In this document: in pieces, positions 3,509 to 60,734 of the stretch
Layout of the letters: each line of letters starts with the position of its first letter
Numbering within the stretch: the stretch's first letter is position 1
Assembly (NCBI GenBank): GCA_965221205.1
Contig: OZ244870.1
Location: 1,038,065 to 1,102,064 of the forward strand
DNA: 64,000 bases
Origin: a bacterium
Lineage (GTDB): Bacteria; SM23-31
Reading direction: 5' to 3'
Program-made: the position numbers and the translations under genes
The notes under the pieces: generated by a model
What the model was told of the DNA's origin: nothing
The model's input: the letters and a program-made list of their open reading frames with translations, nothing else
Databases searched by the model: none

Positions 3509-3512
3509 TCAA

Positions 3513-29037: not shown

Positions 29038-29049
29038 CAGGAGTTTCGT

Positions 29050-30396: not shown

Positions 30397-31718
30397 AGAA
30401 AGGATATCAGGGAATTATCACATTTGCAAGTATGTTCATGTTAGCCACTGCGGCATTCGGACAATATGCTGTAACAAAGGCAACGATCGTTACGGTGTCG
30501 GGAGGTACCATAACGAATGGAACAATCGTGATTGAAGGAGACCGAATCGCCGTTCTTGGGACAGATATTGTGCTTCCGCAGGGAATCGAAGTTATTGATG
30601 CTACAGATTTGTATGTCTATCCCGGAATGATCGGTACAAACACCAATCTTGGCCTTACAGAACTGGGTGGTGTGACGCAAACTCAAGACCAAAGAGAAAT
30701 TGGAACCTTCAATACCTTTATCCGTGCATCGCAGGGAGTCAATCCACATACAATATTGAAAGGTATTGCCCGCTGGAATGGCGTAACGTCTGCAATTACT
30801 GTTCCCCGAACAGAGAAACAGGGAGTCTTTGCAGGACATGAAGTGCTTCTGAATTTAGACGGATGGAGTGTTGATGAAATGACGGTACAGGACCCGGTAG
30901 CGATGCAGATGACATTTCCGGACTTTAACCGGAATTCAGGTGGTAATAATGGAGAAGATCTTCCCCGACAGCTGGAAGCCCGCGGCGGCAGAAAGAACAG
31001 GCGTAATCGTGCCGAAAAAGTCCTGTCGGACGTTAAAGAATTGTTCGAAAAAACACGGCGCTATTCCCAGGCTCAGGCCGATTTTGAAGCACGAATACGC
31101 TCGTCATATCCGGTTACCGATCTGACGTTGGAAGGTTTGAAACCGGTTGTGCGGAAAGAAGTTCCGTTAACGATTACCGTGAATGGTGTCGAAAACATCC
31201 GTAAAGCGATCACATTTGTAAAGGAGACAGGAATCCGTGCGGTTTTTGCAGGTGCACAAGACGCCTACAAAATAGCAGAAGAAATCGCCGAAGCTGAAAT
31301 ACCGGTTCTCTATTCAGGTCTGCTCACTAAGGCTGATCAATATAATCCCTACGACCTCCATTTGACGGTCCCGTCAGTACTCCATAAAGCCGGAGTCACA
31401 ATTGCAATGTCGATAGCAAATGCATCTGATTTACAGAATCTCCCGTTTATGGCAGGAATGGCAGCCGCATACGGACTGCCGAAAGATGTTGCTTTGAAAA
31501 CAGTGACGCTTTATCCTGCTGAAATATACGGAGTGGATGATAAGCTTGGCAGCATCGAGGTGGGAAAAATGGCAAACATAGTTATTGCAGATGGTGACCT
31601 GCTCGAGCCACGCACAAAGGTCATTCATGAATTTATCCGTGGTCAGAAAGTCGACCTGTCAGATAATTACCAGTTTCAGCTCTACGAAAAACACCGAAAA
31701 CGCCCGGCTAAACATTGA
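30393..31718 (+). CDS. Amidohydrolase family protein, likely non-catalytic paralog
   Basis: Start taken at ATG 30393 (MKKGYQG), overlapping the upstream stop by 4 nt; PGMIGTNTNLG replaces the HxH metal-binding motif. Confidence 0.7.
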   Translation: MKKGYQGIITFASMFMLATAAFGQYAVTKATIVTVSGGTITNGTIVIEGDRIAVLGTDIVLPQGIEVIDATDLYVYPGMIGTNTNLGLTELGGVTQTQDQREIGTFNTFIRASQGVNPHTILKGIARWNGVTSAITVPRTEKQGVFAGHEVLLNLDGWSVDEMTVQDPVAMQMTFPDFNRNSGGNNGEDLPRQLEARGGRKNRRNRAEKVLSDVKELFEKTRRYSQAQADFEARIRSSYPVTDLTLEGLKPVVRKEVPLTITVNGVENIRKAITFVKETGIRAVFAGAQDAYKIAEEIAEAEIPVLYSGLLTKADQYNPYDLHLTVPSVLHKAGVTIAMSIANASDLQNLPFMAGMAAAYGLPKDVALKTVTLYPAEIYGVDDKLGSIEVGKMANIVIADGDLLEPRTKVIHEFIRGQKVDLSDNYQFQLYEKHRKRPAKH

Positions 31719-33597: not shown

Positions 33598-36411
33598 TCA
33601 AGCGCCGCCAATGCCCGCGTGGCGTGAAAGAATGCTCTGAATATCACCGGGGGCTCTCGATATATCCCCTGCCCAGCGGCCAAAGCCGCCATGCGCGTTG
33701 ACGGCGGTGATCCATTCGTCGAGAAACCGGCGTTTGGTTCGGTCCTGTTCGCTGTCCTGTCCCTTGGTTTCCAACACGAGTATGTCGCCGGACCTGAACC
33801 GGATGAGGAAGTCGGGACGGTACTTCCGCACCACGCCGCGATGGACGTAGAACACTTCGAAGCCCAGGTGATCGTTTTTCACCCAGGCGGCGACCTCGGG
33901 GGCGTGATCGAGGGCAAAGGCTTCCGACGATTCCCAGGTGCTGTCATAGACGCAGAAATTGATATGGCTGCGCGCCGTGGGCTCGCAGGGCCTGCCGGTG
34001 TACCATGTCCCCATGTCGCCGGTTGAACGGATGGGCCGGTCCCGGTCGAACACCGGCTCCAGACTCTCGGTGTTCTCGAAGCGGATGGCTTCCCAGATAT
34101 GCTGGACCACCTTGGTCATGTTGAGCGTGATGATGAGACGGCGCTTGAGATCGTCGCGGAGGAATAGTGCAGGCGTGATGCTGATTCTGTCCGAACGGAT
34201 GAATTGATCGACCAGCCGTACCAGTTGGGCCAGCAGGAATGCTTTGCCTCCCCGCCAGTTCTTTTGCATTTGGTCGTAAACGTCCCGCGCGGTCTCAAAG
34301 ATAATCCGCTGTGTCCGAAACTCCCGCGCCAGATTCTCCAAGTCTATAGCCTCGATCTTCGTCACGTCCGGTTTGCCGGCGACGATTGGGGCAAGCTCCG
34401 CGATTCTTACGGTCCTGCCAACATCGAGTTCCAGGCTTGCCACCTTGTTCCAATCCAGGGAGAGCTGCGGTCGGTATACGTGGTCGATGCGGATCACGTT
34501 CGGCCAAGAGATTTCGAAAGCCGCTTTGCCCGTTACCGGCTCAATAGCGGTCTTTGGCGTTGGCGGCGGTGGAGGGCCGCTCTCTCCACCTTCGTGGGGC
34601 AGAAAAGTGAAGGGCACGCCGAAAATATTGACGTACTCCGGCTCGAACAAACCGTTGTTCGGGTTCACATCGTAAGATGTGCGGCGCAGGCCGCGTCCGA
34701 CGACCTGTTCACAGAGAAGCTGGCTGGTGAACGCGCGGAGGCCCATGATGTGTGTCACGGTCTTGGCGTCCCATCCCTCGGAAAGCATCCCGACGGAGAT
34801 CACATTCTGGATCAGCTCGCCCGTTTTCCCAGGTTGGCCCACGGTGTTCACCTGCGAGCGCAGCAGCTCGGCTTGCTGTTTTTTGGTTAGCTTGCGTGAG
34901 GGGCCGCCGTTCGCAGCTTCTTCGCTCTCGCCAGCGCCGATCTCCGCGATCGGCTCCTCGGCGGCCTCGGCCGCGTCAAGTACCCTTGAGTCGATATGAA
35001 GGGTTCGCGCCGGGTCGCAAAGCTCGCTGATACGGACTCTGCTGTGGTCGAATGCGTACTTGATCCGGGCTGCGGTCTCGGTGCGATTGGCGACGGTGAT
35101 CATCACTGGCGGGGTTTTGGACCCGTCCTTTCTCCATTGCTTAGATGTCTCGCGCCAGTCGAAGCCGAGAAGGCAGTAGCCATTGACCACCAGGTCCGGC
35201 AGCGGTTCTTCGGGCTTGGCCCGCCGGTTTAAGTCGTCCTTGACCTCGGCATCGTTGTAGATGTGGTAGAGGCGGGATTTGTAGGTCGTGACGTCAGGTA
35301 CCGCATCGTCGCGAATCACGACGCGTGGGGTCTTGACCAAACCGGACTCGATGGCGTCGTTCAGGCCGAAGTCGCTCACGATCCAGCCGAACAGCGCCTC
35401 CTCGGAACTCCGTTTACCCGATGGCGCGAAGGGCGTGGCGGAGAAGTCGCAGCAAGCGAGAATGCCCCGCGCCCTGTCGATCCGATCCAGGCCGCCAACC
35501 CACTTGGTCGCTTCCTCGATTTCATCCCTGGCAACACCTTTGACCTTGGATTCGGCGGGAACGCGCCAGGCGTGATGCGCTTCGTCATTGATGACAAGAA
35601 TGTTCCGGGCGTTCGCCAAGTCGCCCAGAACCTCGCGGACATAGGCTTCGTCGCTCTTGGATCTCCGTTTATCTACGCTGCGTTTTCCGGCAATCCTCTC
35701 ATCGGTCTCCCAATTGAGTGCGTGCCAGTTGCGGACCACGACCTTGCCTTGGCGCAGCTTGTCGAACAGGGACGACGGAACGACGTGGAAAGCTTTGTAG
35801 TAGTTCTCCGCATGAGACGGTTCCAAGACGGCCAGACGGTTCTTGACCGTGAGTCCCGGAGCGATAACCAGCACGTTTCGGGCGAATCGCGCATCCTGGG
35901 AATAGGTGACCTTGTTCAGGATATGCCAGGCGATGACCATGGCCATGACGACGGTCTTGCCCGAGCCGGTCGCCATCTTTGCGCACAACCGCCCAATCGG
36001 CCCGCCATCGGAAGGGATGTCAACGCCAATTTTCTCGGCCGCTGACGCTTCGGCAAGCCAGATCAGCGTCTCGACAGCCTCCAGTTGGCAGAAGAAAAAT
36101 CGACGGTTATCGAACTCCTCCGGGTTCGTCCAGTGCTCCAACAGCCGCTTCGTAATTCCCGTGACACCCGGATACCCGGCTCCACGCCACGCCCGTACAC
36201 GCGGACGAATCCGGTTGACCAGGGGAATCTCGACGAAATGGCCCGGATCATCGAACGATCGGGAGCCCTCCGAGGCAATGACGTATCCGGCCGGCCGGCG
36301 GCCTTGCGCACGGTCGAAAAGGCGCGTCTGGCGGTCGTAGCTCCAGTGTTGGCCCGGCTCCTCGTAGGGAGAGTTGATAATCAGGCGATCGATGGTTGTT
36401 TGCGCCATCAT
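33598..36411 (-). CDS. res: Type III restriction enzyme Res subunit
   Basis: Walker A ATGSGKTVV, DEAH box VINDEAHH, helicase C-terminal motifs; start ATG 36411 (MMAQTTIDRLIINSPYEEP) overlaps the hepT stop (ATGA); inside the GC-rich island. Confidence 0.85.
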   Translation of the reverse strand: MMAQTTIDRLIINSPYEEPGQHWSYDRQTRLFDRAQGRRPAGYVIASEGSRSFDDPGHFVEIPLVNRIRPRVRAWRGAGYPGVTGITKRLLEHWTNPEEFDNRRFFFCQLEAVETLIWLAEASAAEKIGVDIPSDGGPIGRLCAKMATGSGKTVVMAMVIAWHILNKVTYSQDARFARNVLVIAPGLTVKNRLAVLEPSHAENYYKAFHVVPSSLFDKLRQGKVVVRNWHALNWETDERIAGKRSVDKRRSKSDEAYVREVLGDLANARNILVINDEAHHAWRVPAESKVKGVARDEIEEATKWVGGLDRIDRARGILACCDFSATPFAPSGKRSSEEALFGWIVSDFGLNDAIESGLVKTPRVVIRDDAVPDVTTYKSRLYHIYNDAEVKDDLNRRAKPEEPLPDLVVNGYCLLGFDWRETSKQWRKDGSKTPPVMITVANRTETAARIKYAFDHSRVRISELCDPARTLHIDSRVLDAAEAAEEPIAEIGAGESEEAANGGPSRKLTKKQQAELLRSQVNTVGQPGKTGELIQNVISVGMLSEGWDAKTVTHIMGLRAFTSQLLCEQVVGRGLRRTSYDVNPNNGLFEPEYVNIFGVPFTFLPHEGGESGPPPPPTPKTAIEPVTGKAAFEISWPNVIRIDHVYRPQLSLDWNKVASLELDVGRTVRIAELAPIVAGKPDVTKIEAIDLENLAREFRTQRIIFETARDVYDQMQKNWRGGKAFLLAQLVRLVDQFIRSDRISITPALFLRDDLKRRLIITLNMTKVVQHIWEAIRFENTESLEPVFDRDRPIRSTGDMGTWYTGRPCEPTARSHINFCVYDSTWESSEAFALDHAPEVAAWVKNDHLGFEVFYVHRGVVRKYRPDFLIRFRSGDILVLETKGQDSEQDRTKRRFLDEWITAVNAHGGFGRWAGDISRAPGDIQSILSRHAGIGGA

Positions 36412-36602
36412 GCAGTCTCCGGTAGCACCAGCGGTTCGATGAGGTTGATGAGACGGGGAATGTCCTGTTGTGCGGTCTTCCACACATGCTTCAGGTCAAC
36501 CTCGAAATAGGCGTGTACGAGGCGATGTCGCATCCCAGCGAACTCCACCGCACCCCGCGCTGCCAGCAGCATGTCGAGCAGACAGGCATCGTCATGCCGC
36601 AT
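36408..36602 (-). CDS. HEPN-domain toxin (HepT/DUF86-like), short form
   Basis: R-x4-H-x-Y motif in GMRHRLVHAYFEVDLKHVW; start overlaps the mntA stop. Confidence 0.55.
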   Translation of the reverse strand: MRHDDACLLDMLLAARGAVEFAGMRHRLVHAYFEVDLKHVWKTAQQDIPRLINLIEPLVLPETA

Positions 36603-36903
36603 AGATCGTCTCGGCGGATTGGAGGATTGCGGCACGGCGAATGTAGTTTCGGCTCTGTTCGACCGCCGTGCGTTCGAACAGGTCTACCTCCCGGCCGAGT
36701 ATCCGAGCCAGATCGGCCTGCATTCGCGCCATGTCCAGAAGTGTGTGGCGCGCTTGTTGCTCGAAACGCACCAGTACATCCACATCGCTTTCCGGTCCGA
36801 AGTCGTCCCGTAGCACGGAACCGAACAGCGACAGTTCGACGATCCGCCAGCGTTTACAAAAGTCGGCTATCTCGTCTCGCGGTGTGTCGATATGTACACT
36901 CAT
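36592..36903 (-). CDS. Nucleotidyltransferase (MntA-type antitoxin)
   Basis: GS-x9-DxD motif LFGSVLRDDFGPESDVDVLV; start taken at internal ATG 36903 immediately after the upstream stop at 36906-36908. Confidence 0.7.
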   Translation of the reverse strand: MSVHIDTPRDEIADFCKRWRIVELSLFGSVLRDDFGPESDVDVLVRFEQQARHTLLDMARMQADLARILGREVDLFERTAVEQSRNYIRRAAILQSAETIYAA

Positions 36904-36905
36904 GC

Positions 36906-37748
36906 CTATAACACTTGGTTCGCGTCGACATTGAAGCCGACACTCTTTAGCTCCCGAATAAGTCTTAGCTTCCAACCATCCGAGCCGTCCAACGGAATGT
37001 AAATGACTCCATCATAGTCCGAGGGCGTCTCTACGTTACCTTTCACCAAAGTGCAGACTCGCTCTCGACCGAGTTTGCCAATGAAGTACCCGAATTCGAA
37101 AATCACGTTCTGTCTCGCCCGTGGCTTTTGATTCTTCTTGTCGTCCGCAAGCGCGCCCACGTCGTCCGGGGTCAGCAGGACCACCGCGAACCCAACTTGC
37201 GCATGTTCCTCAAACTTCTCGATGATCGTGCGGCCCTTATTCGGTTGTTCGTGCAGGATTACCGGTTCAAGATCCAGCCTTTCTAGGAATCTTGCAACCG
37301 TTCTCCGAGCAGATTCGTCGTGGCCATGGATGACGAAAACTCTGTTACTGCTCGATCGTTTGTCGATTCGTTCCGAGTCAAGCGCTGAAATGTCACTTTG
37401 ATCTATGGGTTGCGTTGGCGTCTGGTTTTCATCAGACCAATACTCCTCGATCTCCTCGATCATGGATTCGAGTACTGCGGCCGCTGATTCCAAGCCTTTC
37501 ACATAAACTTCCTGGCGTTCTGACTCAGGCGGCTCAAAGTAGGCAGGGGCAGGAGAAAAACGGATATTTTTGAAGTCTCCAATGTGGGCCGACTTGCTCT
37601 CAAACGTGTTGGTGATAGCGACCTCTGTGTTTCTTTGCCACTTATCAAACTCAGGTGAGCGGTACTTTAGGTTTTTTAATTTGGGTATTGCATCCAATGC
37701 TCTCCGCAGGCGCTCCAGACCCTTGGCTTTTATTGGTCGCGCCATCAC
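36906..37748 (-). CDS. TIR-like nucleotide-binding protein (COG4271/PF10137-like C-terminal domain) with unknown N-terminal domain
   Basis: C-terminal block RVFVIHGHD..FAVVLLTPDD..ARQNVIFEFGYFIGKLGRERV..PSDYDGVIY matches the TIR-like family pattern recalled from memory; start overlaps the Mod stop. Confidence 0.6.
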   Translation of the reverse strand: MMARPIKAKGLERLRRALDAIPKLKNLKYRSPEFDKWQRNTEVAITNTFESKSAHIGDFKNIRFSPAPAYFEPPESERQEVYVKGLESAAAVLESMIEEIEEYWSDENQTPTQPIDQSDISALDSERIDKRSSSNRVFVIHGHDESARRTVARFLERLDLEPVILHEQPNKGRTIIEKFEEHAQVGFAVVLLTPDDVGALADDKKNQKPRARQNVIFEFGYFIGKLGRERVCTLVKGNVETPSDYDGVIYIPLDGSDGWKLRLIRELKSVGFNVDANQVL

Positions 37749-40133
37749 TCCACCTCCACCACTTTTAAGCTCTCGATGCCGCGGTCGTCGACGATCTTGA
37801 CGGTGATGCGCCGGTGTCCGCCGACTTCGAAGGGGAGGGAGGACGTCCCGCGATAGGCCTCAACCAGGTCTGTGTCGATCTCGGCCTTGAGATTCCGGGC
37901 GAGTTTTGCCCAGCCGTCCCTGCTGCCCGCCATGGGAAAAAACACCTGGCGGGGAAACAGGCTGCGCCCGTCATAGTCCGGATCGAGCATCCACATAGCG
38001 ATCTTGTCCGAGCCGCCCGATTCCACGTTGCCGGTCTTGGTGTTGTAATAGTCGAATCCTTGGACCGAGACGCGGAACTTGCCCTGGTCTTCGCCTTCCT
38101 TGATCCGCTCGACTTCCATGTCCGGCTGGCCGATCAGCCAGAAGCTCTCGTTGCTTGTCCGCTTCTTCTTGAGGTCGTCGGTCAGCAAATCGGCGTTCAT
38201 CTGCACTTTTAACAAGGTGGCGCCAGGCCAGCGGGTTTCGTCGATGTCCTTGGGACGCTTCGGGATCGAACTGGAAGGCCGCAAAGACGATAACCTTGGG
38301 TCGTGGGGCAAGACTTTGTGCCTCCTCGATGGCGCGTGCCACCTGCCGCTGCTCCAGCGGTGCATGATCCGGCCCAAACGAGACCACGAGCCGTTCCGGA
38401 TTGCGGGTGGTAGCGGGGTCTTGAAAGCCGTCCGTCCCCGCATCGCCGGGCCGCGTCTCGCCCTCGGCGTGCAGCCATCGGGTTGCGGGCAGCGGTTCCA
38501 GCCGAGCAAATGAGATTCGCTGCCCGTCCTTGCCGCGAATGCCGGTCTTGAACAACTCGTCGCGCCAGTCGCCTTGGCGCACGGTCGGTCCAGTACGCGC
38601 CACGGAGGTGTCTGCCGGCAGTGCCTCGGACTCTTCGATGTCGTCCAGGGGCTTCACCGTTGGCGCGGGAACCGCTTCCACGGTGAACGGTCCGGTGACA
38701 CGGGCTTTGCGCCGGTTGATCTCCGGTTGATCGTAGAGCGTGGTCTCGTTGGGCGGTTCGTCATAGCCCAAAGTCTTCGCCGATACGGTGGCGACGCTGT
38801 GGTAACGAAAACCGGCCCCAACTCCTTCGTCAGGATGGGCCAGTTTGTAGTAGTGATAGTTCGCCGTCATGAGGCGCTGCTTGGCCAAGACTGTCGCGAC
38901 GCGCGATGTGTCGCAGGTGATCCATCTTCTGCCCCATTGCTCGGCGACGTGGGCAGTGGTACCGCTGCCGCAGGTTGGGTCAAAGACCAAATCGCCCGGA
39001 TCGGTGGTCATCAGGATGCAGCGCTGAATCGCCTTGTTAGCGGTCTGGACCACATAGTGCTTGGCACTGGGCGACATTGGTGCTGCCCAGATGTTGTTGA
39101 TTGGTCTCCCCGGAACCTCATCTTCATACCGTTTCCACATCAGTGACGTCTGGTTCCCCAGGGCTTCCAACCGACCTAGTTCGGCGAGTCGGTCTATTCC
39201 CTCTTTGGAAATGCGCCATTGGCTGTCCCTGCTACAACGAAAGACGCGACCGTCATATTCATAGGGTTCGGAGCGCGCAACCGTGGAAACACCCTGCGAT
39301 TCAAGGGGCATACGGCGATAAATGCGCCCGCCCTCCGGCAAGTGCTTGTCTGGGTCGAAGCGTTCTTCGGGGGTGGGTTTACGGCACTGGCCGTCAGGCA
39401 GTTCGACACTCACATATGAACTGAAAAACTCGATCACCTCGGCCCGCGTGAGCGACTCATACAATTGCCGGTATTTCACAAGCCCTCGGTCTCTGGCATA
39501 CCACAACAGATAATCCGCAACTTGGGGCAAGGTCTTAGCAGGACTGTTGCCGGTGGTCGCGTAGGAAATGGTTGCCATCCGGTTCTCTGCGCCGAAGATG
39601 TCGTCCATGACTAGGCCGACGCGGTGGATATTTTCGTCGCCGATCTGCACGAAGACACTGCCGCTCTCATGCAGCAGCTCGCGCGCCAACAGCAGGCGGT
39701 CGCGCAGATAGGCGAGATACGAATGGATGCCGAGTTCCCAGGTATCGCGGAAGGCGCGGATCGTCTCCGGCTCCTGGGTCAGGTCCTCGTCCCTGCCGTC
39801 GGTCACGGTGCGCTGGTTGACGAATGGTTGGAAGTTCGAGCCGTAGCGGATGCCGTAGGGCGGGTCGATGCGCTCATGGACGTGCAGGGATACGGTGGGG
39901 ACTTCGAACGAGGTGTGCTCGTCCTTCCCGGCCCAGACGAGCTGCGGATCCAGGTGCGGATCGTAAGCGTAGGTTGTCTTGCCCGCATCCTTGTCGGTCT
40001 CCGGTGTCACCAATCCGACAGGCGGGTTGTTCACACGCTCCTTGCCAGTGTGCGTGTAGTTTTCAACCTCACGCTTTTTTCTGTTCTTCGGTCCCGCTAT
40101 GTCGTTCCCCTTAACTTCGGTCTCTGTCTCCAA
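37745..40133 (-). pseudogene. mod: Type III DNA methyltransferase Mod, apparent +1 frameshift near 38252
   Basis: ORF 37971-40133 carries DPPY, NIWAAP and FDPTCGSGTT motifs, then turns into Arg-rich nonsense after ..FQFDPEA; ORF 37745-38509 continues in another frame with a Mod-like C-terminus; junction at a GGG run (plus 38252-38254). Confidence 0.7.
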
Positions 40134-43801: not shown

Positions 43802-45223
43802 GTGATGAAAAAACTTAGAATTATCGGTGTTGCACTGCTTATCGCACAGCTGTTTGCTGGATGCGATACTTCGAAATACGATGAGATTCATTCAACTGAT
43901 AACTTCAGCAACATCCTGCCGCAGCGTGCAGGCATTGAATTGATTGAAGATTGGCTCCAGTGGAAGATCAATAATTTTTTGCCTGAACTCATGGAGCGGG
44001 AAGGTATTGAAATGTGGATTATCACAGAAGATGACACGAGACTCTATCCGTTTTTGATTCCTGCAAACAGCGACGGTTTTGTCGGCCGGAACAGCTTCTA
44101 TATTGCTATTGCTCATAAAGCGGGCCAGGAAGGGGTAGAGCGGCACATGATCGGCAATTCGGACAGTTTCCGCGAGTGGGGGCCGATGTTCCCGGATCAG
44201 GTGTTTACACAGTCAGGCAGCCTCGAAAAACTCTCAGGAATCGTGACCGAATTAAGACCGGCAAAAATTGCGGCAGGTGCTGCATGGAATAACGACCTCG
44301 AAGCAGCGCTCGGTCCCACACTCTCAAACAGACTCGTATCTGCCGACCGGCTAGCAAATCTTTGGATGGAATACCGAACACCGCAGCAACTGGAGGCGTA
44401 CAAAACCGTTATCGATATTACCCATGATCTTATTGCAGGTGGTTTCTCGAGCGACGTTGTGACGCCCGATGTCACAACATCGAATGACATCAACTGGTGG
44501 GTAAAACAGCAGGCTTCCGACCTTGGAATTGATGTAAATTTCGGACCGACAGTCATGGTGTGGAGAAGCTTTGAAGAAAATAAAAAGTACAGTGACCAGG
44601 AAGAAAAATTCCGGATCGATGTTCCGCCGCATAACCTCTACGAAACGGTTATCAGGCGCGGTGATGTGCTTTCATGCGATATCGGAATCCGGTATCTCGG
44701 TCTCTCGACTGATATTCAGCAGGTTGCCTACGTGCTGAAAGAAGGTGAATCGGATGTCCCGGAAGGACTCATGGAAGCGCTACGCCGCGGCAACAGGCTG
44801 CAGGATATCCTCATCGAAGAATTCAAAGAAGGGCTCACCGGGAATGAAATTCTCTTTGCCACGCTTGACCGGGCAAAAGCAGAAGAACTCAGACCCGAAG
44901 TCTACTGTCACACGATGGGATCGTACATCCACCGGTACGGATTTAAAGGGGGTATCATGCCGAAAACCTATGCAGGTTTCGGTCCGTCGGTCGGTTCCGA
45001 GGGACATTTTGACGAAAATGGTAACCAGCTGCCAACACGGAATGGCGAACGGTCGGTCAATACGAACACAATCTATTCAATGGAACTCGACATCACGTAT
45101 GCCGTGCCTGAATGGAACGGTCAGGATATCCGGATCGTTCTTGAAGAAGATGTTGCCTTTACGTCTCAGGACGGGCTCTTTTTTCCCGGAGGCCGCCAGA
45201 CCGAATGGCTTGTGATCCGGTAA
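43802..45223 (+). CDS. M24 family metallopeptidase, lipoprotein-like
   Basis: 473 aa with signal peptide and Cys (LFAGCDT); candidate metal ligands in VLSCDIGIRYLGLSTD, CHTMGSYIH, YSMELD, VLEEDV. Confidence 0.7.
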   Translation: MMKKLRIIGVALLIAQLFAGCDTSKYDEIHSTDNFSNILPQRAGIELIEDWLQWKINNFLPELMEREGIEMWIITEDDTRLYPFLIPANSDGFVGRNSFYIAIAHKAGQEGVERHMIGNSDSFREWGPMFPDQVFTQSGSLEKLSGIVTELRPAKIAAGAAWNNDLEAALGPTLSNRLVSADRLANLWMEYRTPQQLEAYKTVIDITHDLIAGGFSSDVVTPDVTTSNDINWWVKQQASDLGIDVNFGPTVMVWRSFEENKKYSDQEEKFRIDVPPHNLYETVIRRGDVLSCDIGIRYLGLSTDIQQVAYVLKEGESDVPEGLMEALRRGNRLQDILIEEFKEGLTGNEILFATLDRAKAEELRPEVYCHTMGSYIHRYGFKGGIMPKTYAGFGPSVGSEGHFDENGNQLPTRNGERSVNTNTIYSMELDITYAVPEWNGQDIRIVLEEDVAFTSQDGLFFPGGRQTEWLVIR

Positions 45224-45321
45224 TGAATCCCGTCAATCGTAATACCGGTTTTTTGTGTTATTATCCGGTTTTGACCGGTTGTTATCATGGCTCACGTAAT
45301 ATCCAGATAACCAAAAGGAAT

Positions 45322-46893
45322 ATGTTCATGCGCTTTTTTTTGATACACTTTATCCTGTTGATAACAATAACGTCAACACTGTCTCATGCTCAGCCAATGC
45401 ATCAAGAGAATTCTCCATCAGAACAGGAGATCAGAGCATTAGTCCGTGAATACCGGACACAGCATCAGCATGCAATTATAGATGGATATATCGATCTGCT
45501 CTCACTGCCGAACCATTCATATAACAGCGAAGACATTCTTAGAAATGCAGACTTCATTGTTGATTTAATGGAAAAGAGGGATATAAAGACAAAAGTGTAT
45601 GACGGCGGGCATGAGAATCCGAAAAATCCGGTCATTTACGGTGAACGAATTGTGCCGAATGCTGAACGGACACTCCTATTTTATGCCCACTACGATGGGC
45701 AGCGTGTCATTCCTGAACGGTGGACAGATTCAACCCCTTTTTCACCGGTGCTTCGCCCCGGAAAACTTGAAGCGGGTACCAGTGAACCCAAACCGATTCA
45801 ATTTCCCGATAAAATGACACCGTACGAAGATGACTGGCGGATTTATGCCAGATCGGCGAGCGATGACAAGGCTCCTTTTATTGCAATACTGACGGCTATC
45901 GATGCCTTGATAGATGGAGGAATTGAACTGAATAATTCGGTAAAATTCGTTTTTGACGGTGCCGAAGAAGAAGGTTCCACACATCTGATCGATTTTATCG
46001 AATCGAATTCCGAACTGCTTACCTCCGATGTCGTATTCATCTGTGACGGTCCGCTCTATCTGACCGGACAGCCGACACTCTATTTTGGTAATAGGGGAAT
46101 TCAGAGTTTGACCCTTACTGTGTACGGTCCAAATACAAATCTCCACAGCGGCCATTACGGGAACTGGGCCCCAAATCCGGCTTATAAATTGGCGCGGCTC
46201 CTCACAAGTTTCAAAGATAAAAATGGCACTGTTGTTGTAAAAAGCTTCTACGACACGGTCACACCGCTCAACAACCGCGAACTCCGAGCATTGAAAGAGC
46301 TTCCGAAACTCGATGAACAGTTAAGAAATCAGTACGAATTTGCTGTTCCCGAAGGTTTGGGTATAAGTCTCAACGAACTGATAAATCGCCCCTCACTGAA
46401 TGTCAGAATGCTCGAAAGCGGTATGAACCGTACCATTATTCCTCATCAGGCCAGTGCTCTGATGGACATACGTCTTGTCAAAGGGACCGACGGAACCGAT
46501 CTGGTAGCAAAGCTTACAAAACATATTGAAAATCAGGGATATCTTATAGTCGATGACGACCCCGGTCATGAAATCAGAATGACCAACCCAAACATTGCAA
46601 AAATCACTGCCGGCACACCCACACCGGCATCCAGGACGTCGATGGAACTACCCGTTTCCCTCGGTATTATTGCAACCATGACAAAAACATTCGATGGCGA
46701 TGTGGCGCTTATACCGTCACTTGGCGGAACGATTCCGGCCTATATGTTTACCGATCTACTCGATTTACCTGCAATCGGTGTCCCGATTGCAAACCCCGAC
46801 AATAATCAGCACCAGTATGATGAGAACATCCGAATAGGTAATCTCTGGCGTGGAATTGAGATAATGGCTGCTCTGCTTATGGCGAGCTGGTAA
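45322..46893 (+). CDS. M20 family metallopeptidase (dipeptidase-like)
   Basis: Start taken at ATG 45322 (MFMRFFLIHF, signal peptide); ARSASDDKAPF and DGAEEEGS motifs. Confidence 0.7.
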   Translation: MFMRFFLIHFILLITITSTLSHAQPMHQENSPSEQEIRALVREYRTQHQHAIIDGYIDLLSLPNHSYNSEDILRNADFIVDLMEKRDIKTKVYDGGHENPKNPVIYGERIVPNAERTLLFYAHYDGQRVIPERWTDSTPFSPVLRPGKLEAGTSEPKPIQFPDKMTPYEDDWRIYARSASDDKAPFIAILTAIDALIDGGIELNNSVKFVFDGAEEEGSTHLIDFIESNSELLTSDVVFICDGPLYLTGQPTLYFGNRGIQSLTLTVYGPNTNLHSGHYGNWAPNPAYKLARLLTSFKDKNGTVVVKSFYDTVTPLNNRELRALKELPKLDEQLRNQYEFAVPEGLGISLNELINRPSLNVRMLESGMNRTIIPHQASALMDIRLVKGTDGTDLVAKLTKHIENQGYLIVDDDPGHEIRMTNPNIAKITAGTPTPASRTSMELPVSLGIIATMTKTFDGDVALIPSLGGTIPAYMFTDLLDLPAIGVPIANPDNNQHQYDENIRIGNLWRGIEIMAALLMASW

Positions 46894-47118: not shown

Positions 47119-47862
47119 ATGACTATGAAAACACAAACACGACGGGAATTTTTAAAAAAGAGTGCCTCCGCCGGAGGCGTTGTAGCGGGTGGGATATTGA
47201 TAGGGACCCTGCCGGCATTATCATGCAATTCAACAACACCAAGTTATAGAAAAGAGGAGCAACACATGGCACATGAATTACCACCTTTACCATATGCATA
47301 TGACGCATTTACCGAAGTAATCGATGAACAGACGATGCGTCTTCACCATGATAAACATCATCAGGGCTATGTAAACGGCCTCAATAAAGCAGAGGAGATG
47401 CTTGCTGCGGCAAGGGATAACGGCGATTTCGGGCTTGTAAAATATTGGGAAAAAGAGCTTGCATTTCACGGTTCGGGACATGCTCTGCACACGATATTCT
47501 GGAATAATCTCTCCCCGAATGGCGGCGGAACACCTTCGGGTGATCTAGGCAGTGCAATCGACAGGGATTTCAGCAGCTTTGACAAATTCAACGCACATTT
47601 TCTGGCTTCGACCAATGGCGTCGAAGGAAGCGGCTGGGGCATTCTTGCCTACCATAAAGCATGGGACAAACTCAACGTGCTTCAAGTCGAAAAACACCAC
47701 GACGTAACTGTCTTCGGCGCGGTTCCGCTTTTAGTGGTCGATGTATGGGAACATGCATATTACCTGAAATACCAGAACAAGCGTCCCGAATATACAAAAA
47801 ACATTTTCAATATCTTCAATTGGGAAGATGTTGCACAGCGGTATGCAGATGCACGCGGCTAA
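47119..47862 (+). CDS. Fe/Mn superoxide dismutase with Tat signal peptide
   Basis: Twin-arginine RREFLKK; LHHDKHHQGYVNGLN and DVWEHAYYL metal-binding motifs. Confidence 0.9.
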   Translation: MTMKTQTRREFLKKSASAGGVVAGGILIGTLPALSCNSTTPSYRKEEQHMAHELPPLPYAYDAFTEVIDEQTMRLHHDKHHQGYVNGLNKAEEMLAAARDNGDFGLVKYWEKELAFHGSGHALHTIFWNNLSPNGGGTPSGDLGSAIDRDFSSFDKFNAHFLASTNGVEGSGWGILAYHKAWDKLNVLQVEKHHDVTVFGAVPLLVVDVWEHAYYLKYQNKRPEYTKNIFNIFNWEDVAQRYADARG

Positions 47863-47907
47863 CCCGTGCATGCAATGGTAAAAAGATAATTTTCGGGATG
47901 AAAATTC

Positions 47908-47942
47908 GAGCCGGTTTCGTATCATACGAGACCGGCTTTTTT
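47908..47942 (+). terminator. Rho-independent terminator downstream of the superoxide dismutase gene
   Basis: 12 bp stem AGCCGGTTTCGT/ACGAGACCGGCT (one mismatch), loop ATCAT, followed by TTTTT. Confidence 0.6.
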
Positions 47943-48108
47943 GTGTCTATTCTTTTTATTTTAACCCAATAAAAATATTTTTAGATAAGACTAAAAATAA
48001 TATTTGCATGTCCTCATTTGTTTTTGTATACTATAACTTATTAGAATTGATCCATAGAAATATTGTTACAATTCAAACTATAAATGTTATGAGAAACAAC
48101 ACAATATT

Positions 48109-49320
48109 ATGCACAAAAATACATTTTCAATCGATAGATATTGCTGTAGCAATCCGGCAAAAACCGTATTCGCTTTTTTTCTTTTCGGACTGTTCGCCTG
48201 TGGTGAACTCCTGACAGAAGCACCCACCGGGGGAGATACTCTCGACGGAACACTTTCCGGAATTTCATCCGAGTTAAATGCATCGTTTGTTCGTGGAGAC
48301 GAAGCATTCGAGAAGGTTTTTACTGTATCATCTGGACTGGGTCCCATTTTCAACCAGCCGAGCTGTGAAACGTGCCATCAGGGTGACGGCAGAGGAACAC
48401 CCGAGACAATTCTGATCCGTTTCAGCAGAGGGGCCGACTTCATAGAAAATGAGGGTGGTGGACAGTTGCAGGATAAAAGTATCACAGCTGTACCGCAAGA
48501 GATTCTTCCATCCGGTGTCGATACATCGCCGAGAATGGCACCTCCGGTGTTCGGAATGGGGCTCATCGAAGGGATTCCGGATGAAACACTCCTTGCACTC
48601 GAAGACCCGGATGATCTCGATGGGAACGGTATTTCAGGCAGAGTGAACAGAGTACCTTCTATCGAAACCGGCACCATGAAAATTGGTCGGTTCGGCAGAA
48701 AAGCAAACACTGCCACGCTTGTTGATCAGGTCTCGCTTGCCTATCATCAGGATATCGGCATTACAACCGACGTAATTCCTGACGAAAATCGACATCCGCA
48801 AGCGGGGAATGTTGCGCTGGGCGATGTTGTACCCGATCCGGAACTTTCGATTTCAACCGTTTTTGATGTGGTGATGTATATCAGATTGCTTGCCCCGCCA
48901 GACAAGGGTTCTGAAACAGCCGAAACGGAACGGGGAAAAACAATTTTCAATGCAATAGAATGTTCTGCATGCCATGTTCCGTCACTGCAGACCGGTCAGA
49001 ATGTGATACCGCAGCTGGACCGTGTTGCTGCCGAACTTTATTCCGATCTGCTGCTCCACGATATGGGATCAGAACTGGCAGACAATAGGCCTGACTATGA
49101 GGCGACGGGTACGGAATGGCGGACACCGCCACTCTGGGGTCTCCGTGTTGCGGGCAATGCACTCGGTGGAAATGTTACGTACCTCCATGATGGCAGAACA
49201 TCCGACTTGTCAGAAGCGATTAGGCTTCACGGTGGAGAAGCAGAAATTGTACGGAATAGATTTAGCGACCTTTCCGAAGAAGACCGGAACGCATTAATTG
49301 CGTTTCTCTTATCATTATAA
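48109..49320 (+). CDS. Di-heme cytochrome c oxidoreductase (DUF1111/thiol oxidoreductase-like)
   Basis: Two CxxCH motifs (CETCH, CSACH); GLGPIFNQPSCETCH block; signal peptide. Confidence 0.6.
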   Translation: MHKNTFSIDRYCCSNPAKTVFAFFLFGLFACGELLTEAPTGGDTLDGTLSGISSELNASFVRGDEAFEKVFTVSSGLGPIFNQPSCETCHQGDGRGTPETILIRFSRGADFIENEGGGQLQDKSITAVPQEILPSGVDTSPRMAPPVFGMGLIEGIPDETLLALEDPDDLDGNGISGRVNRVPSIETGTMKIGRFGRKANTATLVDQVSLAYHQDIGITTDVIPDENRHPQAGNVALGDVVPDPELSISTVFDVVMYIRLLAPPDKGSETAETERGKTIFNAIECSACHVPSLQTGQNVIPQLDRVAAELYSDLLLHDMGSELADNRPDYEATGTEWRTPPLWGLRVAGNALGGNVTYLHDGRTSDLSEAIRLHGGEAEIVRNRFSDLSEEDRNALIAFLLSL

Positions 49321-49331
49321 TGTAAGTAATC

Positions 49332-49784
49332 ATGAGATCACTTGATAAGAGCATAACACGGAGAAAATTTATCAAACAGTCAACCAATTCCGTCGTTGCT
49401 GCAGGTTGTGCAGCATACGGACTTTCTGGTTGTGCGATAACTCAGACTTACAAAGGTACCGCCCGAGATGGAATGTTTACCGGTGTTATTGCAGAATATC
49501 CGGAGCTTTCGACAGCAGGAGGAGCGATCATTCTCGAAGCTGAAGGACTGACAGAACCGGTTGCAGTAATCAATATTGACGGGGCTGAAATCAGAGCGTT
49601 TTCCGCACTGTGCGCGCATATGGGCTGCACCGTCGGCGTATCGCAGAATTTTTTCCTCTGTCCCTGTCACGGTTCGACCTATGACCTTACCGGTTCGGTC
49701 GTCCGTGGTCCGGCACAAAAAGGGCTGAAACGGTTTCCGGTTACAGTAGACAGTGGTTCGTTTGCTATCGATCTCAGTAGATAA
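49332..49784 (+). CDS. Rieske [2Fe-2S] domain protein with Tat signal
   Basis: RRKFIK twin-arginine; Rieske boxes CAHMGC and CPCHGS. Confidence 0.75.
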   Translation: MRSLDKSITRRKFIKQSTNSVVAAGCAAYGLSGCAITQTYKGTARDGMFTGVIAEYPELSTAGGAIILEAEGLTEPVAVINIDGAEIRAFSALCAHMGCTVGVSQNFFLCPCHGSTYDLTGSVVRGPAQKGLKRFPVTVDSGSFAIDLSR

Positions 49785-49797
49785 AGGATTCAATTAC

Positions 49798-50973
49798 ATG
49801 AAACGAAATAGATTACTTTTGTTCTCATTTTTGTTCACACTTGTCGCTGCTCAACATCTGTGGGCATTTCAGGACATACGCGACGTACCATTTATCCGGG
49901 GCGGAGCGTATGATAAACCTTATCTCTATAAAATTGCATCTGGTAGAGCCGCACTCGGCGGGTACGCCGAGACTCATTTCAGATTTGAACGGGAAGAAGG
50001 AGTAACCGAAGAGTTGACCTTCGTTCCGAAACGGTTCAATCTCTTTATGCATGCAAATGTTTCTCAGCGAGTGCAGATGGCAGCCGAACTCGAATTCGAA
50101 GAAGGAACAGAAGAGATTCTCCTTGAACTCGCCGTTCTCGATTTCAGACTCCACCATACACTGACCTTCAGGGGCGGTATGCTCCTGTCGCCGCTTGGGA
50201 AGTTCAATCTGGCACATGACAGCCCGGCAAATAAAATGACTGACCGGCCGCTCGTCAGTACACAAATCATCCCGACAGCACTATCTGAGCCCGGCATGGG
50301 AATTCTCGGATCGTTTTATCCGTCTGCACAATCCCGATTAACATATGAACTCTATGCAGTAAATGGATTCACCTCCGATATCATAGACGAAAGTCCCGAC
50401 GGGACGCGTATTTCGAAGGGGAAACACAATATCGAAGATAATAACAATTCACCGGCGTTTGTCGGGCGGATCGGATACAGCCCAATACCGGAAACCGATC
50501 TCGGTTTTTCATGGCATTCCGGAAAATATAATGTTACCGAATTAGATGGACTCACTATCGATGAAGACAGGAATTTGACGATTCTTGCACTCGACGGGGA
50601 AGTGAGACGAGGCAGGTATGAACTGCTTGGCGAATATGCTCATGCATCGATCGATATTCCGACAAATCTTACGGGGACAATATACGCATCAGGACAGCAG
50701 GGGTTCTACTTGCAAGCTAGTGCGGCATTCCTGAACGGGATAATCGCGACGATCCCGGAATCATATTTTGAAGGGGTTGTCCGGTACGATAGGGTTGATT
50801 TTGATACAGATGTTGATGGTGACACCGATACACGGCTGACACTCGGATTAAATTTCCGGCCGTCAGCCGATTCAGTACTCAAATTCAACTATGCCTACAA
50901 CTGGATGCGTAATGGGCTCAATGTTGAAACGAACAGCGCAGGTATCCTTTTCAGTTTTGCAACATATTTTTGA
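49798..50973 (+). CDS. Outer-membrane beta-barrel (porin-like) protein
   Basis: Start taken at ATG 49798 (MKRNRLLLFSFLFTLVAA signal peptide); alternating amphipathic strands; C-terminal FSFATYF. Confidence 0.5.
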   Translation: MKRNRLLLFSFLFTLVAAQHLWAFQDIRDVPFIRGGAYDKPYLYKIASGRAALGGYAETHFRFEREEGVTEELTFVPKRFNLFMHANVSQRVQMAAELEFEEGTEEILLELAVLDFRLHHTLTFRGGMLLSPLGKFNLAHDSPANKMTDRPLVSTQIIPTALSEPGMGILGSFYPSAQSRLTYELYAVNGFTSDIIDESPDGTRISKGKHNIEDNNNSPAFVGRIGYSPIPETDLGFSWHSGKYNVTELDGLTIDEDRNLTILALDGEVRRGRYELLGEYAHASIDIPTNLTGTIYASGQQGFYLQASAAFLNGIIATIPESYFEGVVRYDRVDFDTDVDGDTDTRLTLGLNFRPSADSVLKFNYAYNWMRNGLNVETNSAGILFSFATYF

Positions 50974-51078
50974 TGAGCCGCTTTAATCGAACAACAGAAA
51001 ATTAGAAATATTTTACTGGAACATTTGAATTAAAATGCATATAATTTTATCAATTGTGGAACACAGGAAGATGATACT

Positions 51079-51426
51079 ATGGCTGATATTAAATGGTACT
51101 ACCACCGCACTGGCTGAACTTCCTGCAAACGGTCGCAGGAGTTCCTTGCGGATAATGCTTTAGAATTTGAAACACTCGAAAGCACATCAAAAAAGAAGTA
51201 CACAGCGGACGATATACCCGGACTGCTCAAAGATATTGATGAGATCTATGTTGGGAAGGGGACAAATGTTGTCCATTTCGATCTACAGAAAGATAAACCG
51301 ACCGCTGACGAATTGAACAGTGTCCTTCTGGGACGGTCGGGTACACTCCGGGCACCTTCAATGAAGGCAGAGAAAACGCTCATCGTCGGATTCAACGAGG
51401 AGATGTACCGAAACGTGTTCGGGTAA
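51079..51426 (+). CDS. ArsC/Spx-family thioredoxin-fold protein with in-frame UGA in a U-x-x-C motif (candidate selenoprotein)
   Basis: One frame from ATG 51079 to TAA 51424-51426 reads MADIKWYYHRTG-[TGA 51115-51117]-TSCKRSQEFLADNALEF..; the UGA sits where Spx has the first Cys of CTSC and ArsC its catalytic Cys; hairpin with 7 bp stem and loop AAACGGUC starts 3 nt after the UGA. Confidence 0.5.
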
Positions 51427-51606
51427 AAAATGCTTGTTAATCAAAGGGTCTGCAAAGCAGGCCTTTTTTATTGCAGCAGCCTCTATTTTTCCAACACTGT
51501 CTTGACTTTGTGGAAGGTTTTACCTATTTTTACTACGAATATAACTCGTTCTTAAAGACACTCTCATCAAATATTATATCCATTCACTATTCAAATTATT
51601 TGATAG

Positions 51607-52500
51607 ATGGCAGACAGTATTCAGGATATTCTCAGCAAGAAATTCGAAGTTCTTAAAAACGGATTTGTGGTACTTGTCGATGTAATGGGTGACGATTCCT
51701 CCATTGTACAGGCCGCACGTGTCAGTTACGGCAAAGGGACAAAAAAAGTGAGCCAGGACCGGGGGCTGATCAGGTATCTCATGCGTCACCGCCACACGAC
51801 TCCGTTCGAAATGGTCGAATTTAAATTTCTCGTCAAGCTTCCGATCTTTGTTGCTCGGCAGTGGATTCGCCACAGGACGGCAAACGTCAATGAATACTCT
51901 GCCCGCTATTCGGTCCTTGAAGATGAGTTTTATATTCCAGAGACCGGTTTTCTTGCAGGACAATCGACCTCGAACAGACAGGGTAGAGAAACCGCGGTCC
52001 CGCTGGAAGAATCCGAACAGGTCCGCTCATCGATTATTGAACACAGCGAAAAGTCATATAGTCTCTATGAATACCTCCTGAATGAAGAGGGTGAAAACGA
52101 AGATACCCAACGGAGCAAACTTGCACGCGAGCTTGCCCGAATTGTCATTCCTACCAATGTATATACCCAGTGGTACTGGAAAATTGACCTCCACAATCTC
52201 TTCCATTTTTTGTCCCTCAGAATGGACAGCCACGCCCAGTATGAAATACGCGAATATGCGAATGTCATGGCCGACATGGTCAAGGCTGCTGTTCCCGTCG
52301 CGCATGAAGCCTTCGAAGATTACATGCTGAATGCAATGCGTTTAACAGGTTTAGAGATAGATATTCTCGGTCCGATTTTGCAAAAAGCCGGGATCACTGA
52401 ACAGCAGCTTGACGACGCCTGTGAAGCTGCCGGATTATCGAATAAACGGGAAAAACAGGAGTTTCTCGACAAGATGAAACGCCTCTCGAACAGTAAATAG
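51607..52500 (+). CDS. thyX: FAD-dependent thymidylate synthase ThyX
   Basis: ThyX signature RHRTANVNEYSARYS; 297 aa. Confidence 0.9.
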   Translation: MADSIQDILSKKFEVLKNGFVVLVDVMGDDSSIVQAARVSYGKGTKKVSQDRGLIRYLMRHRHTTPFEMVEFKFLVKLPIFVARQWIRHRTANVNEYSARYSVLEDEFYIPETGFLAGQSTSNRQGRETAVPLEESEQVRSSIIEHSEKSYSLYEYLLNEEGENEDTQRSKLARELARIVIPTNVYTQWYWKIDLHNLFHFLSLRMDSHAQYEIREYANVMADMVKAAVPVAHEAFEDYMLNAMRLTGLEIDILGPILQKAGITEQQLDDACEAAGLSNKREKQEFLDKMKRLSNSK

Positions 52501-58874: not shown

Positions 58875-60548
58875 TTATTGTTCGTGTCTGATAACGATAC
58901 CGGGACGCGCTCCGGTCATATGTCCATTTTCGATTACAAATTTTCCATTGACGAGCATATAATCAATCCCCTCTGCATATCTCAGAGGATCAGTAAATGT
59001 CGCCCGGTCCTGAATCGTCTCCGGATCAAATATAACGATATCAGCCGCGTATCCGGGATTGATTTGCCCGCGGTCTGCCAATTTAAGAATCTCTGCCGGA
59101 AGCGAGGTCATTTTTCTAACAGCTTCCTTAAGGCTGATGATCTGTTTTTCCCGGACATAGTGAGCAAGTATTCTTGGGAACGCTCCAAATGCGCGTGGAT
59201 GTGCACTTGCTGTTGATTCGGGATTGATCGGAGAAGCATCGTTATCGAAGCATATAAAATCAGCCCGCAACGCAAGGTGTTTCTGTTCCTCATTCATGCT
59301 TACCGGTGCTACACTTGTCCCGGCAATGACAAGGTCAAAAAACATATCCCAGACATTAACACCCTTTTTAGCGGCCGCTTCTTCAATCGATAATCCGACC
59401 AGGCTTTCAAACTGCTCATCATTAACCCCGGTAATCAGAACTTTATACCAGTTGCTGCCTGTCTGCCGGTAGAAATTCTCCCAGTCCGCTATGGTTTCGA
59501 TTTCCCGTCTGAGTTCCTGCCGGAAATTCGGTTCATTTAATTGACCGAACAGTGCGTCCTCTCCGTGTGCGAACCGGTTGGGGTGGATAAATGCACTGAG
59601 TCCGAGTCTGCTCCTAATATAAGGATAGATATCTGCGGTAATATCAAGACCGTCTCGCCGGGCATCGGAAATTTTCTGCAGCGCCTGTTCCATGAGCGGC
59701 CAGTTATCCTGCCCTGCTGCTTTCAGATGAAAAATATGACTTGGCAATCCTGCTACACTGCTGATACGAATTACCTCATCGACAGCTTCAAGCAAGCTGC
59801 CGCTTTCGTTCCGAATGTGGGATAAATATATCCCACCATGCTCAGCGGCTGTGCGTGCAAGCTCGGTAATTTCTTCAGTTGAAGCGAATGCGCCGGGGGG
59901 ATAAATCAACGCGGTTGAAAGCCCCACGGCACCGTCATGAATTGCCTCGGAAACAAGCTCTTTCATCTTCTCCAACTCGCCGGGAGTCGGTGCCCGGTCT
60001 TTTTCACCAACCACGATCCGACGGACTTGGCTTGAACCGACCGTATGGAGCACATTCAGTGCAATGCCTTTCTTCTCAAGCAGCGGAAAATATTCTGAAT
60101 ACGTTGACCAGGTTTCGTCGACACTGCGGTACTCGCTATTCGTACTTGCTTCGGAGCGGGGTGCAACGGTTGTACCTTCACCGACAAGCATCGTCGTTAT
60201 CCCTTGGCGGAGTTTACTCTCAGCGGTGACCGGGTCACTGAGGAGCGGCACACTGCTGCCGCCCATCATATCGATAAAACCGGGTGTGACAACCCTGCCG
60301 TTAGCATCGATTACCATTCCGGCAATTTCGTTGGGAAGCATGCCGATTTCTCTAATTATCCCATCCTTGACTGCAATATCGGCTGTATAACCTGCTGCTC
60401 CTGTTCCGTCGATTACGAGTGCATTTTTGATGATAACGTCAAAATCATATGACGATGAGCAGTTGAAAAACAATCTGCCAATCAGAATGAGCATGAGAAA
60501 TGATGTTGAAGAAGATGGTATTTTTCTTCTAATATTCATTCGATTCAT
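58875..60548 (-). CDS. Amidohydrolase family protein (N-acyl-D-amino-acid deacylase-like)
   Basis: About 558 aa from the internal ATG at 60548; GTGAAGYTADIAVKDGII..PGFIDMMGG pattern; the HxH motif is replaced. Confidence 0.65.
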   Translation of the reverse strand: MNRMNIRRKIPSSSTSFLMLILIGRLFFNCSSSYDFDVIIKNALVIDGTGAAGYTADIAVKDGIIREIGMLPNEIAGMVIDANGRVVTPGFIDMMGGSSVPLLSDPVTAESKLRQGITTMLVGEGTTVAPRSEASTNSEYRSVDETWSTYSEYFPLLEKKGIALNVLHTVGSSQVRRIVVGEKDRAPTPGELEKMKELVSEAIHDGAVGLSTALIYPPGAFASTEEITELARTAAEHGGIYLSHIRNESGSLLEAVDEVIRISSVAGLPSHIFHLKAAGQDNWPLMEQALQKISDARRDGLDITADIYPYIRSRLGLSAFIHPNRFAHGEDALFGQLNEPNFRQELRREIETIADWENFYRQTGSNWYKVLITGVNDEQFESLVGLSIEEAAAKKGVNVWDMFFDLVIAGTSVAPVSMNEEQKHLALRADFICFDNDASPINPESTASAHPRAFGAFPRILAHYVREKQIISLKEAVRKMTSLPAEILKLADRGQINPGYAADIVIFDPETIQDRATFTDPLRYAEGIDYMLVNGKFVIENGHMTGARPGIVIRHEQ

Positions 60549-60734
60549 TTTTTCCCTGTGTGTCAATTGTGTCAATTGTAGATATGTCATGAGAACAGTG
60601 AAACAAAAGATATACTTTGCAGTATATGATAGCAAGACAATTATAAACTCCTTGCTATAATGATACGTCTGCTCTATCTTTCTAATAACTTCTTTTGACA
60701 AAATGTATTTTCATAGATAATATCGGTGGATTAA

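Follow-up and report, generated by a model that had tools for sequence, protein, structure and literature searches.

Probable reading of an in-frame UGA codon as selenocysteine in an ArsC-family (seleno)protein gene

The locus described here raises the question of whether a UGA codon inside an otherwise open reading frame is read as selenocysteine (Sec), and which RNA structure would direct such a reading. The window, meaning the whole stretch of DNA that was analysed, is 64 kb long and has a GC content of 45.3%; all features of the gene given below lie on the + strand. As read from the window sequence, the frame begins with ATG at 51079, ends with TAA at 51424-51426 and holds a single in-frame TGA at 51115-51117, exactly as the preliminary description had stated. 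The coding sequence (51079-51426) consists of 115 sense or Sec codons, one of which is the Sec codon, plus the TAA stop, and its translation is MADIKWYYHRTG-(UGA)-TSCKRSQEFL...NEEMYRNVFG. In the standard ORF list of the window the gene is present as fragments only, which bears out the earlier remark that the ORF track had missed it because of the stop. No second credible candidate was found when the 64-kb window was scanned for other TGA-interrupted genes.

The reading that we consider very probable is that the gene encodes a 115-residue protein of thioredoxin fold within the ArsC/Spx group, belonging to the family NF041106, with UGA as Sec13 and with a small hairpin downstream of it, here called hairpin B, as the most likely recoding signal. 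That the coding sequence is complete is indicated by the reading frame, the score against the family model, the conservation of homologs over the full length and the predominance of synonymous changes.

The first protein search gave eight relatives, all N-terminally truncated except one, which has a 'W' at the UGA position. In the DNA behind these relatives every locus has a TGA in frame, aligned at one and the same codon, and upstream of the TGA the peptide M-x-K-[VI]-[DK]-W-[SY]-Y-H-R-x-G is conserved. Scanning a single genome for each species added 80 further loci, mostly from Planctomycetota, the other taxa being Zixibacteria, Acidobacteriota, Nitrospinaceae, Gemmatimonadaceae, Halieaceae and other Gammaproteobacteria. 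The homolog set, i.e. the window and 88 loci, amounts to 89 sequences with 82 distinct Sec forms; two extra regex matches (L028 position 1382 and L034 position 1267) lay in unrelated frames and were discarded. TGA occupies the same aligned codon in 85 of the 89 sequences, down to about 35% identity, and the remaining four have a Cys codon there, TGC in L039, L054 and L063 and TGT in L083. Among 1.8 billion representative proteins there were 346 matches at E <= 0.001, and the best 150 of these 346 included 25 full-length Cys forms (e.g. WSYHRPGCKTC), seven calls in which TGA was given as W and many truncations starting directly after the TGA. The alignment with Cys-containing homologs that had been proposed as a check thus yielded Cys at the UGA codon both in DNA and in protein entries. 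At the level of sequence, this distribution of UGA and Cys is the standard signature of Sec/Cys homologs.

The preliminary description had named homologs that start downstream of the UGA as grounds for abandoning its reading. Such homologs are present in the output of gene callers only, and the truncations are artefacts of the TGA. The codon three positions after the UGA encodes Cys in 80 of the 82 Sec forms and in 24 of the 25 Cys forms; in the window it is TGC at 51124-51126, and Cys16 is likely to be the resolving cysteine of the U-x-x-C motif. Two Sec forms do not have this second motif cysteine, L002 with U-T-S-A (238-249) and L066 with U-V-S-S (3034-3045), so that not every member of the family can form a selenenylsulfide with Cys16.

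The closest relatives of the window gene, L001 and L009, share 94-96% protein identity with it. Between the three genes the ratios of synonymous to non-synonymous differences in codons are 15:5, 16:6 and 19:4; the 12-codon stretch ahead of the UGA has four changes, none of which alters the amino acid. Two further chromosome-scale assemblies, which come from different samples and are labelled 34x and 29x, contain an identical coding sequence with the TGA in place. Were the TGA a nonsense mutation, or an error of assembly or sequencing, the locus would be a pseudogene or a true Cys gene, and the splitting of the gene at the TGA by gene callers would be explained. The presence of TGA at the same codon throughout many phyla, the identity of the coding sequence between independent assemblies and the purifying selection on both sides of the TGA effectively refute such an origin.

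The family of the protein was determined with profile searches in which U was read as C in the query. The NCBIfam model NF041106 (ArsC_rel_Se_1, 'ArsC family (seleno)protein') gave 125.3 bits against a cutoff of 85 (E = 1.5e-36), with residues 4-110 aligned to model positions 1-107 of 107, and the Cys forms P0014 and P0021 scored 143 and 117 bits with the same model. The motif of this family, a Sec or Cys that opens U/C-x-x-C after strand beta-1, is present in the window protein as U-T-S-C. The Pfam ArsC model (PF03960) gave 23.0 bits, just below its cutoff of 24, and the Spx/MgsR model TIGR01617 gave 34.7 bits against a cutoff of 75.05. None of the NCBIfam models for arsenate reductase matched at E <= 1, and the substrate is therefore probably not arsenate.

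When the profile of the family was compared with the PDB, Spx was the best solved relative (3l78, E = 3.6e-9; 1z3e, E = 4e-8), and chains of ArsC R773 (1sk0 and 1s3d) matched part of the protein only, at E = 0.57-0.96. In the alignment U13 and C16 correspond to Cys10 and Cys13 of the Spx CTSC motif, so that the UGA does stand, as had been claimed, at the position of the first Spx cysteine. The N-terminal Y-H-x-P-x-C/U context also appears to resemble the region of the catalytic Cys in ArsC. An AlphaFold (AF2) model built for a homolog from the database in which the Sec site is W (pLDDT 71) puts this site directly before helix alpha-1, as its N-cap, and the upstream peptide forms strand beta-1. 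The ten best PDB matches of the model are all Spx, YffB or ArsC-related (probability 0.94-0.99, TM 0.42-0.51); the quality of the structural model is judged to be moderate. The earlier proposal of an ArsC/Spx selenoprotein with Sec first in U-x-x-C is thus upheld by the Sec/Cys pairs, the conserved flanks, the NF041106 match and the Spx alignment. The protein is, however, neither a typical ArsC nor an Spx regulator.

If the UGA were instead a true stop, the protein would start downstream of it and the 12 upstream codons would be a short leader ORF or untranslated. Many database entries do have their start immediately behind the TGA (M-[ST]-C...) or at a later point, but in the window the first ATG, GTG or TTG after the UGA comes only well within the domain. 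The upstream peptide is moreover conserved as protein with synonymous changes only, is fused in frame to the rest of the protein in the Cys forms and makes up strand beta-1 of the fold in the homolog model. A product deprived of beta-1 and of the first redox residue would have no active site. We consider termination at this codon extremely unlikely, and the UGA is taken as the codon of Sec13.

The preliminary description had pointed to a hairpin starting 3 nt after the UGA as resembling a bacterial SECIS, though closer than the classical spacing. Its stem, 51120-51126 paired with 51135-51141, does exist, with the loop AAACGGTC and one G.U pair, and it can be extended into a larger structure, here called hairpin A (51116-51144; GAAC(U)UCCUGC / GCAGGAGUUC, loop AAACGGUC), which takes in the GA of the UGA. 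Hairpin A folds at -13.1 kcal/mol (z = -3.9, 0/200 shuffles). According to the bSECISearch model as quoted in PMC13188914, the consensus of bacterial SECIS elements has a loop of 3-9 nt, with a G at one of its first two positions and usually G or U after it, a stem of 4-16 bp, a distance from UGA to loop of 16-37 nt and a minimum free energy of at most -7.5 kcal/mol. Hairpin A departs from this consensus in its spacing (9 nt) and in the loop G (its loop starts with AA).

Hairpin B (51133-51151) agrees with the published consensus at every point and is the probable bacterial SECIS. Its stem UCGCAGG/CCUUGCG(G) has 6-7 bp and its apical loop is the pentanucleotide AGUUC (51140-51144), which opens with A-G-U; the UGA is separated from the stem by 15-16 nt and from the loop by 22 nt, and the fold has -7.9 kcal/mol (z = -2.9). 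The segment GCAGGAG is common to hairpins A and B, which are mutually exclusive.

Covariation was analysed in an ungapped, codon-aligned alignment of the 82 distinct Sec genes with 500 shuffles. For hairpin B, pairing was found in 80.3% of cells against 70.2 +/- 0.9 after shuffling (0/500), double-sided changes numbered 48 against 16 expected (0/500), and the covariation score was 0.308 against 0.168 (0/500), the best of all registers when the stem was slid along the alignment. As the shuffle control ignores phylogeny, the counts of 0/500 are not probabilities. The stem CGCAAG/CUUGCG is replaced by CCCAAG/CUUGGG, CUCAAG/CUUGAG, CACGAG/CUCGUG and AUCCAA/UUGGAA, and the amino acids vary along with it (T-Q-E-F-L-A, A-Q-E-F-L-G and S-K-F-L-E). 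When register shifts are allowed, 78 of the 82 Sec genes have a hairpin apex over the same column and 75 of the 82 a stem of at least 5 bp; the loop has GUU or AGUU in 61 genes, and 70 of the 78 have 15-17 nt between the UGA and the hairpin.

For hairpin A, under the same control, pairing did not differ from the expectation (74.4 vs 74.1%, 161/500), nor did covariation (0.119 vs 0.122, 360/500). The hairpin of the preliminary description therefore stands as a structure but is not the best candidate for the SECIS, a role against which both covariation and geometry speak. The covariance-model scan that had been suggested gave no match to a bacterial SECIS: no SECIS family of Rfam was found in the whole window at gathering thresholds, nor in 51060-51220 at E <= 10.

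A comparison with synonymous recodings of the same proteins separates the two hairpins in another way. In the Sec genes the region of hairpin B is more stable than its recodings (mean z = -2.0, with 62% at <= 5/100), and in the four Cys-form genes it is not (z = 0.0). The window's own hairpin B is marginally stable and not clearly better than its recodings (17/100). Hairpin A is far more stable than its recodings in the window and in L001 (z = -4.0, 0/100 in both), with a family mean of only -0.9; in the lineage of the window it is not noise. This excess over recodings is confined to a subset of the family. In the window, L001, L009, L090 and L091 the weaker, conserved SECIS hairpin faces competition from a strong hairpin that contains the UGA.

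It could be asked whether hairpin A, rather than B, is the functional SECIS in the lineage of the window. It is the minimum-free-energy structure, its loop contains GGUC and two substitutions in its stem in L009 retain wobble pairing, and these points add to its stability relative to recodings. The covariation is, however, missing family-wide, the distance of 9 nt from UGA to loop falls short of the consensus and the first two loop positions have no G; in L020 and L027 the loop equivalent to that of hairpin A (AAAAAAAC) has no G at all. Given the known size of the mRNA channel, a ribosome with the UGA in its A site would moreover enclose the 5' arm of hairpin A. A SECIS function of hairpin A is on this evidence unlikely, and the recoding signal is most likely hairpin B, which lies at the classical distance of a bacterial SECIS.

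A further possibility, which we regard as improbable, is that in the lineage of the window the pair of hairpin A (-13 kcal/mol) and hairpin B (-8 kcal/mol) forms a ribosome-driven or regulated switch between Sec insertion and termination. The SECIS could in that case, for example, be hidden from SelB until the ribosome arrives, and the near-invariant base after the UGA may be part of the same device. This base (51118) is A in 79 of the 82 distinct Sec forms, the residue after U being T, K, M, I or N. Among the 25 Cys-form proteins an A-initial codon after the Cys is required in 10, a number that rises to at most 14 when S and R are included. The near-invariant A may reflect a codon-context preference of Sec decoding, with the proviso that these counts ignore phylogeny. 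Pairing of UGA+A with the apical GUU(Y) of the SECIS hairpin is possible in almost every Sec gene; the columns concerned are invariant, which puts this pairing beyond the reach of covariation.

With hairpin B as the candidate signal, the amino acid inserted at the UGA can be considered. A reassigned code or near-cognate suppression would make the residue Trp, Cys or Gly, and the W in some assemblies (P0002 and six others) might be cited for this, as might the fact that no Sec machinery was seen in the 64-kb window. The DNA of P0002, as of the W calls generally, does not translate under table 11. TGA is the terminator of 19 of the 51 non-overlapping window ORFs of at least 120 aa, and the genetic code of the host is therefore standard. 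The homologs without TGA have Cys at this position, neither Trp nor Gly, and the covarying SECIS-type hairpin goes with the TGA and is absent from the Cys forms. A standard amino acid at the UGA is accordingly given a very low probability, and Sec remains the preferred residue.

The search for the Sec machinery covered the window and the collected loci. No tRNA-Sec was found by ARAGORN in the window or in 60 related loci, the only tRNA of the window being tRNA-Gln. Pfam domains of SelA, SelB and SelD did not occur in the 20 candidate-sized ORFs of the window, i.e. in 64 kb of a chromosome of 3,784,425 bp, and regex searches of the window and the collected loci for the signatures of SelD and SelA and for the G1 motif of translational GTPases (SelB-type) gave nothing credible. 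This result would fit a gene that was inherited as a selenoprotein gene and has outlived the Sec machinery of its genome, with full-length expression gone; the loss of selenoproteins has been described as frequent (PMC1794560). Five related assemblies nevertheless retain the TGA together with the frame and both hairpins, and the changes among them are strongly biased towards synonymous ones, which is not expected of a dead gene. We therefore consider a relic very unlikely, and prefer a gene in use whose UGA is decoded as Sec.

The events at the UGA may then be pictured as follows. A ribosome that reaches the UGA with its A site would place the 5' arm of hairpin A inside the mRNA channel, where hairpin A must be open. 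The freed 3' arm would allow hairpin B to form just outside the ribosome, at the mRNA entrance, and its G-U loop would be presented to SelB carrying Sec-tRNA(Sec), so that the UGA at 51115-51117 would be decoded as selenocysteine. The arrangement pictured here resembles the fdhF element of E. coli, of which the apical minihelix alone is needed. In the finished protein Sec13 stands at the N-terminal end of helix alpha-1 and, like the first Cys of CxxC redox proteins, most likely alternates between a reduced selenol/thiol form and a selenenylsulfide with Cys16.

The gene lies between a cluster of superoxide dismutase, di-haem oxidoreductase and Rieske genes and thyX. In the window it is monocistronic and has its own terminator-like hairpin at 51443-51469, about 20 nt past the stop, which was identified by folding and direct reading; the core GGGUCUGC-AAA-GCAGGCC is followed by six U and has -14.1 kcal/mol (z = -3.6, 1/200). 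The consensus scan for promoters and terminators did not list this hairpin and found no promoter upstream of the gene. The neighbourhood (window 47119-50973 and 51607-52500) is conserved in L001 (593-5828), both having the order Fe/Mn superoxide dismutase, di-haem oxidoreductase (DHOR), Rieske protein, a protein of about 400 aa, the selenoprotein gene and thyX. The protein of about 400 aa has no Pfam match, ends in ...ATYF and is possibly an outer-membrane barrel. The redox theme of this neighbourhood is not conserved across the wider family: of the 88 loci, at most 14 have any one neighbour in common, and several of the shared neighbours are antisense shadow ORFs. The context thus gives no clue to the function.

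Other parts of the window contain three N6/N4 DNA methylase genes, a ResIII-type helicase gene and a gene for a BglII-like endonuclease (3432-5360, 16541-18105 and 33598-40133; the endonuclease gene, 17491-18105, was named from L089), which together indicate several restriction-modification systems within 64 kb. Three tandem paralogs of the amidohydrolase family (27559-31718) have a fourth elsewhere (58875-60701), and peptidase genes of the M24 (43802-45223), M20 (45205-46893) and S9 (18327-20384) types are found near the amidohydrolases.

The public annotation of the family is affected by the TGA throughout. Nearly all database entries P0001-P0158 are TGA artefacts, in that they are truncated, start with a Met after the Sec codon or have W in its place, the W arising where table 4 was used for translation, as in a TARA assembly. 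The public calls of the window gene and of most of its relatives are cut short or have W at the Sec site, the 73-aa P0001 being an example of a truncation. It is because of the in-frame TGA that such calls lack their N-terminus; a search with the full protein gave only eight matches among 5.8 billion proteins, yet more than 80 genomes carry the gene. The main value of the present analysis is therefore a corrected annotation, namely of a redox-active selenoprotein that is missed through truncated or W-mistranslated calls, and it implies that the lineage of the window uses selenocysteine. The set of about 85 Sec forms and 30 Cys forms, most of them from Planctomycetota, could with its very compact SECIS be useful to those who characterise the family. 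Since the selenoprotein family to which the gene belongs as an ordinary member has already been curated and published, the result is a correct call and not a discovery, and knowledge of Sec decoding is unchanged by it.

ArsC-like selenoproteins have been known since 2005-2008 (PMC1794560, PMC2398784). Proteins designated 'ArsC-like' were listed as selenoproteins of Deltaproteobacteria (PMC1794560), and in the GOS samples 'Arsenate reductase (ArsC) 1' was given as UxxS and 'Arsenate reductase 2' as cd03032 with UxxC, the latter with 42 Sec and 238 Cys sequences (PMC2398784). A review of 2026 (PMC13188914) lists NF041106 as 'Arsenate reductase-like protein, UxxC' and describes such Trx-fold selenoproteins as functionally largely uncharacterised. 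From the common UxxC and the Spx-like (cd03032) affinity we infer that NF041106 may be the same as 'Arsenate reductase 2'. Like the proteins described here, the published selenoproteins of the ArsC/Spx superfamily have Sec first in the redox motif and have Cys homologs, and they are mainly metagenomic (PMC1794560, PMC2398784); a difference is that the family described here includes UxxA in L002 and UxxS in L066.

Compared with the bSECISearch consensus, the prototype of which is E. coli fdhF, hairpin B is very small and embedded in the conserved Q-E-F-L-A codons, and it competes here with a stronger alternative hairpin that contains the UGA. With Spx of B. subtilis and streptococci (1z3e and 3l78) the protein shares the RxP and GFNE motifs in addition to the aligned CxxC and UxxC; it differs in having Sec where Spx has Cys, in an identity of about 20% and in a score below the cutoff of TIGR01617, the model of the RNA-polymerase-binding Spx/MgsR regulators. 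With the glutaredoxin-coupled ArsC of the R773 type the superfamily fold is held in common, and the difference lies in the arsenate reductase models of NCBIfam, to which the protein gives no match at E <= 1. The closest likeness is to the members of NF041106, which have the same UxxC, the same size and the same mix of Sec and Cys forms. There is no substantive difference between them and the window gene; its source has 45% GC, and most genomic members found are from Planctomycetota.
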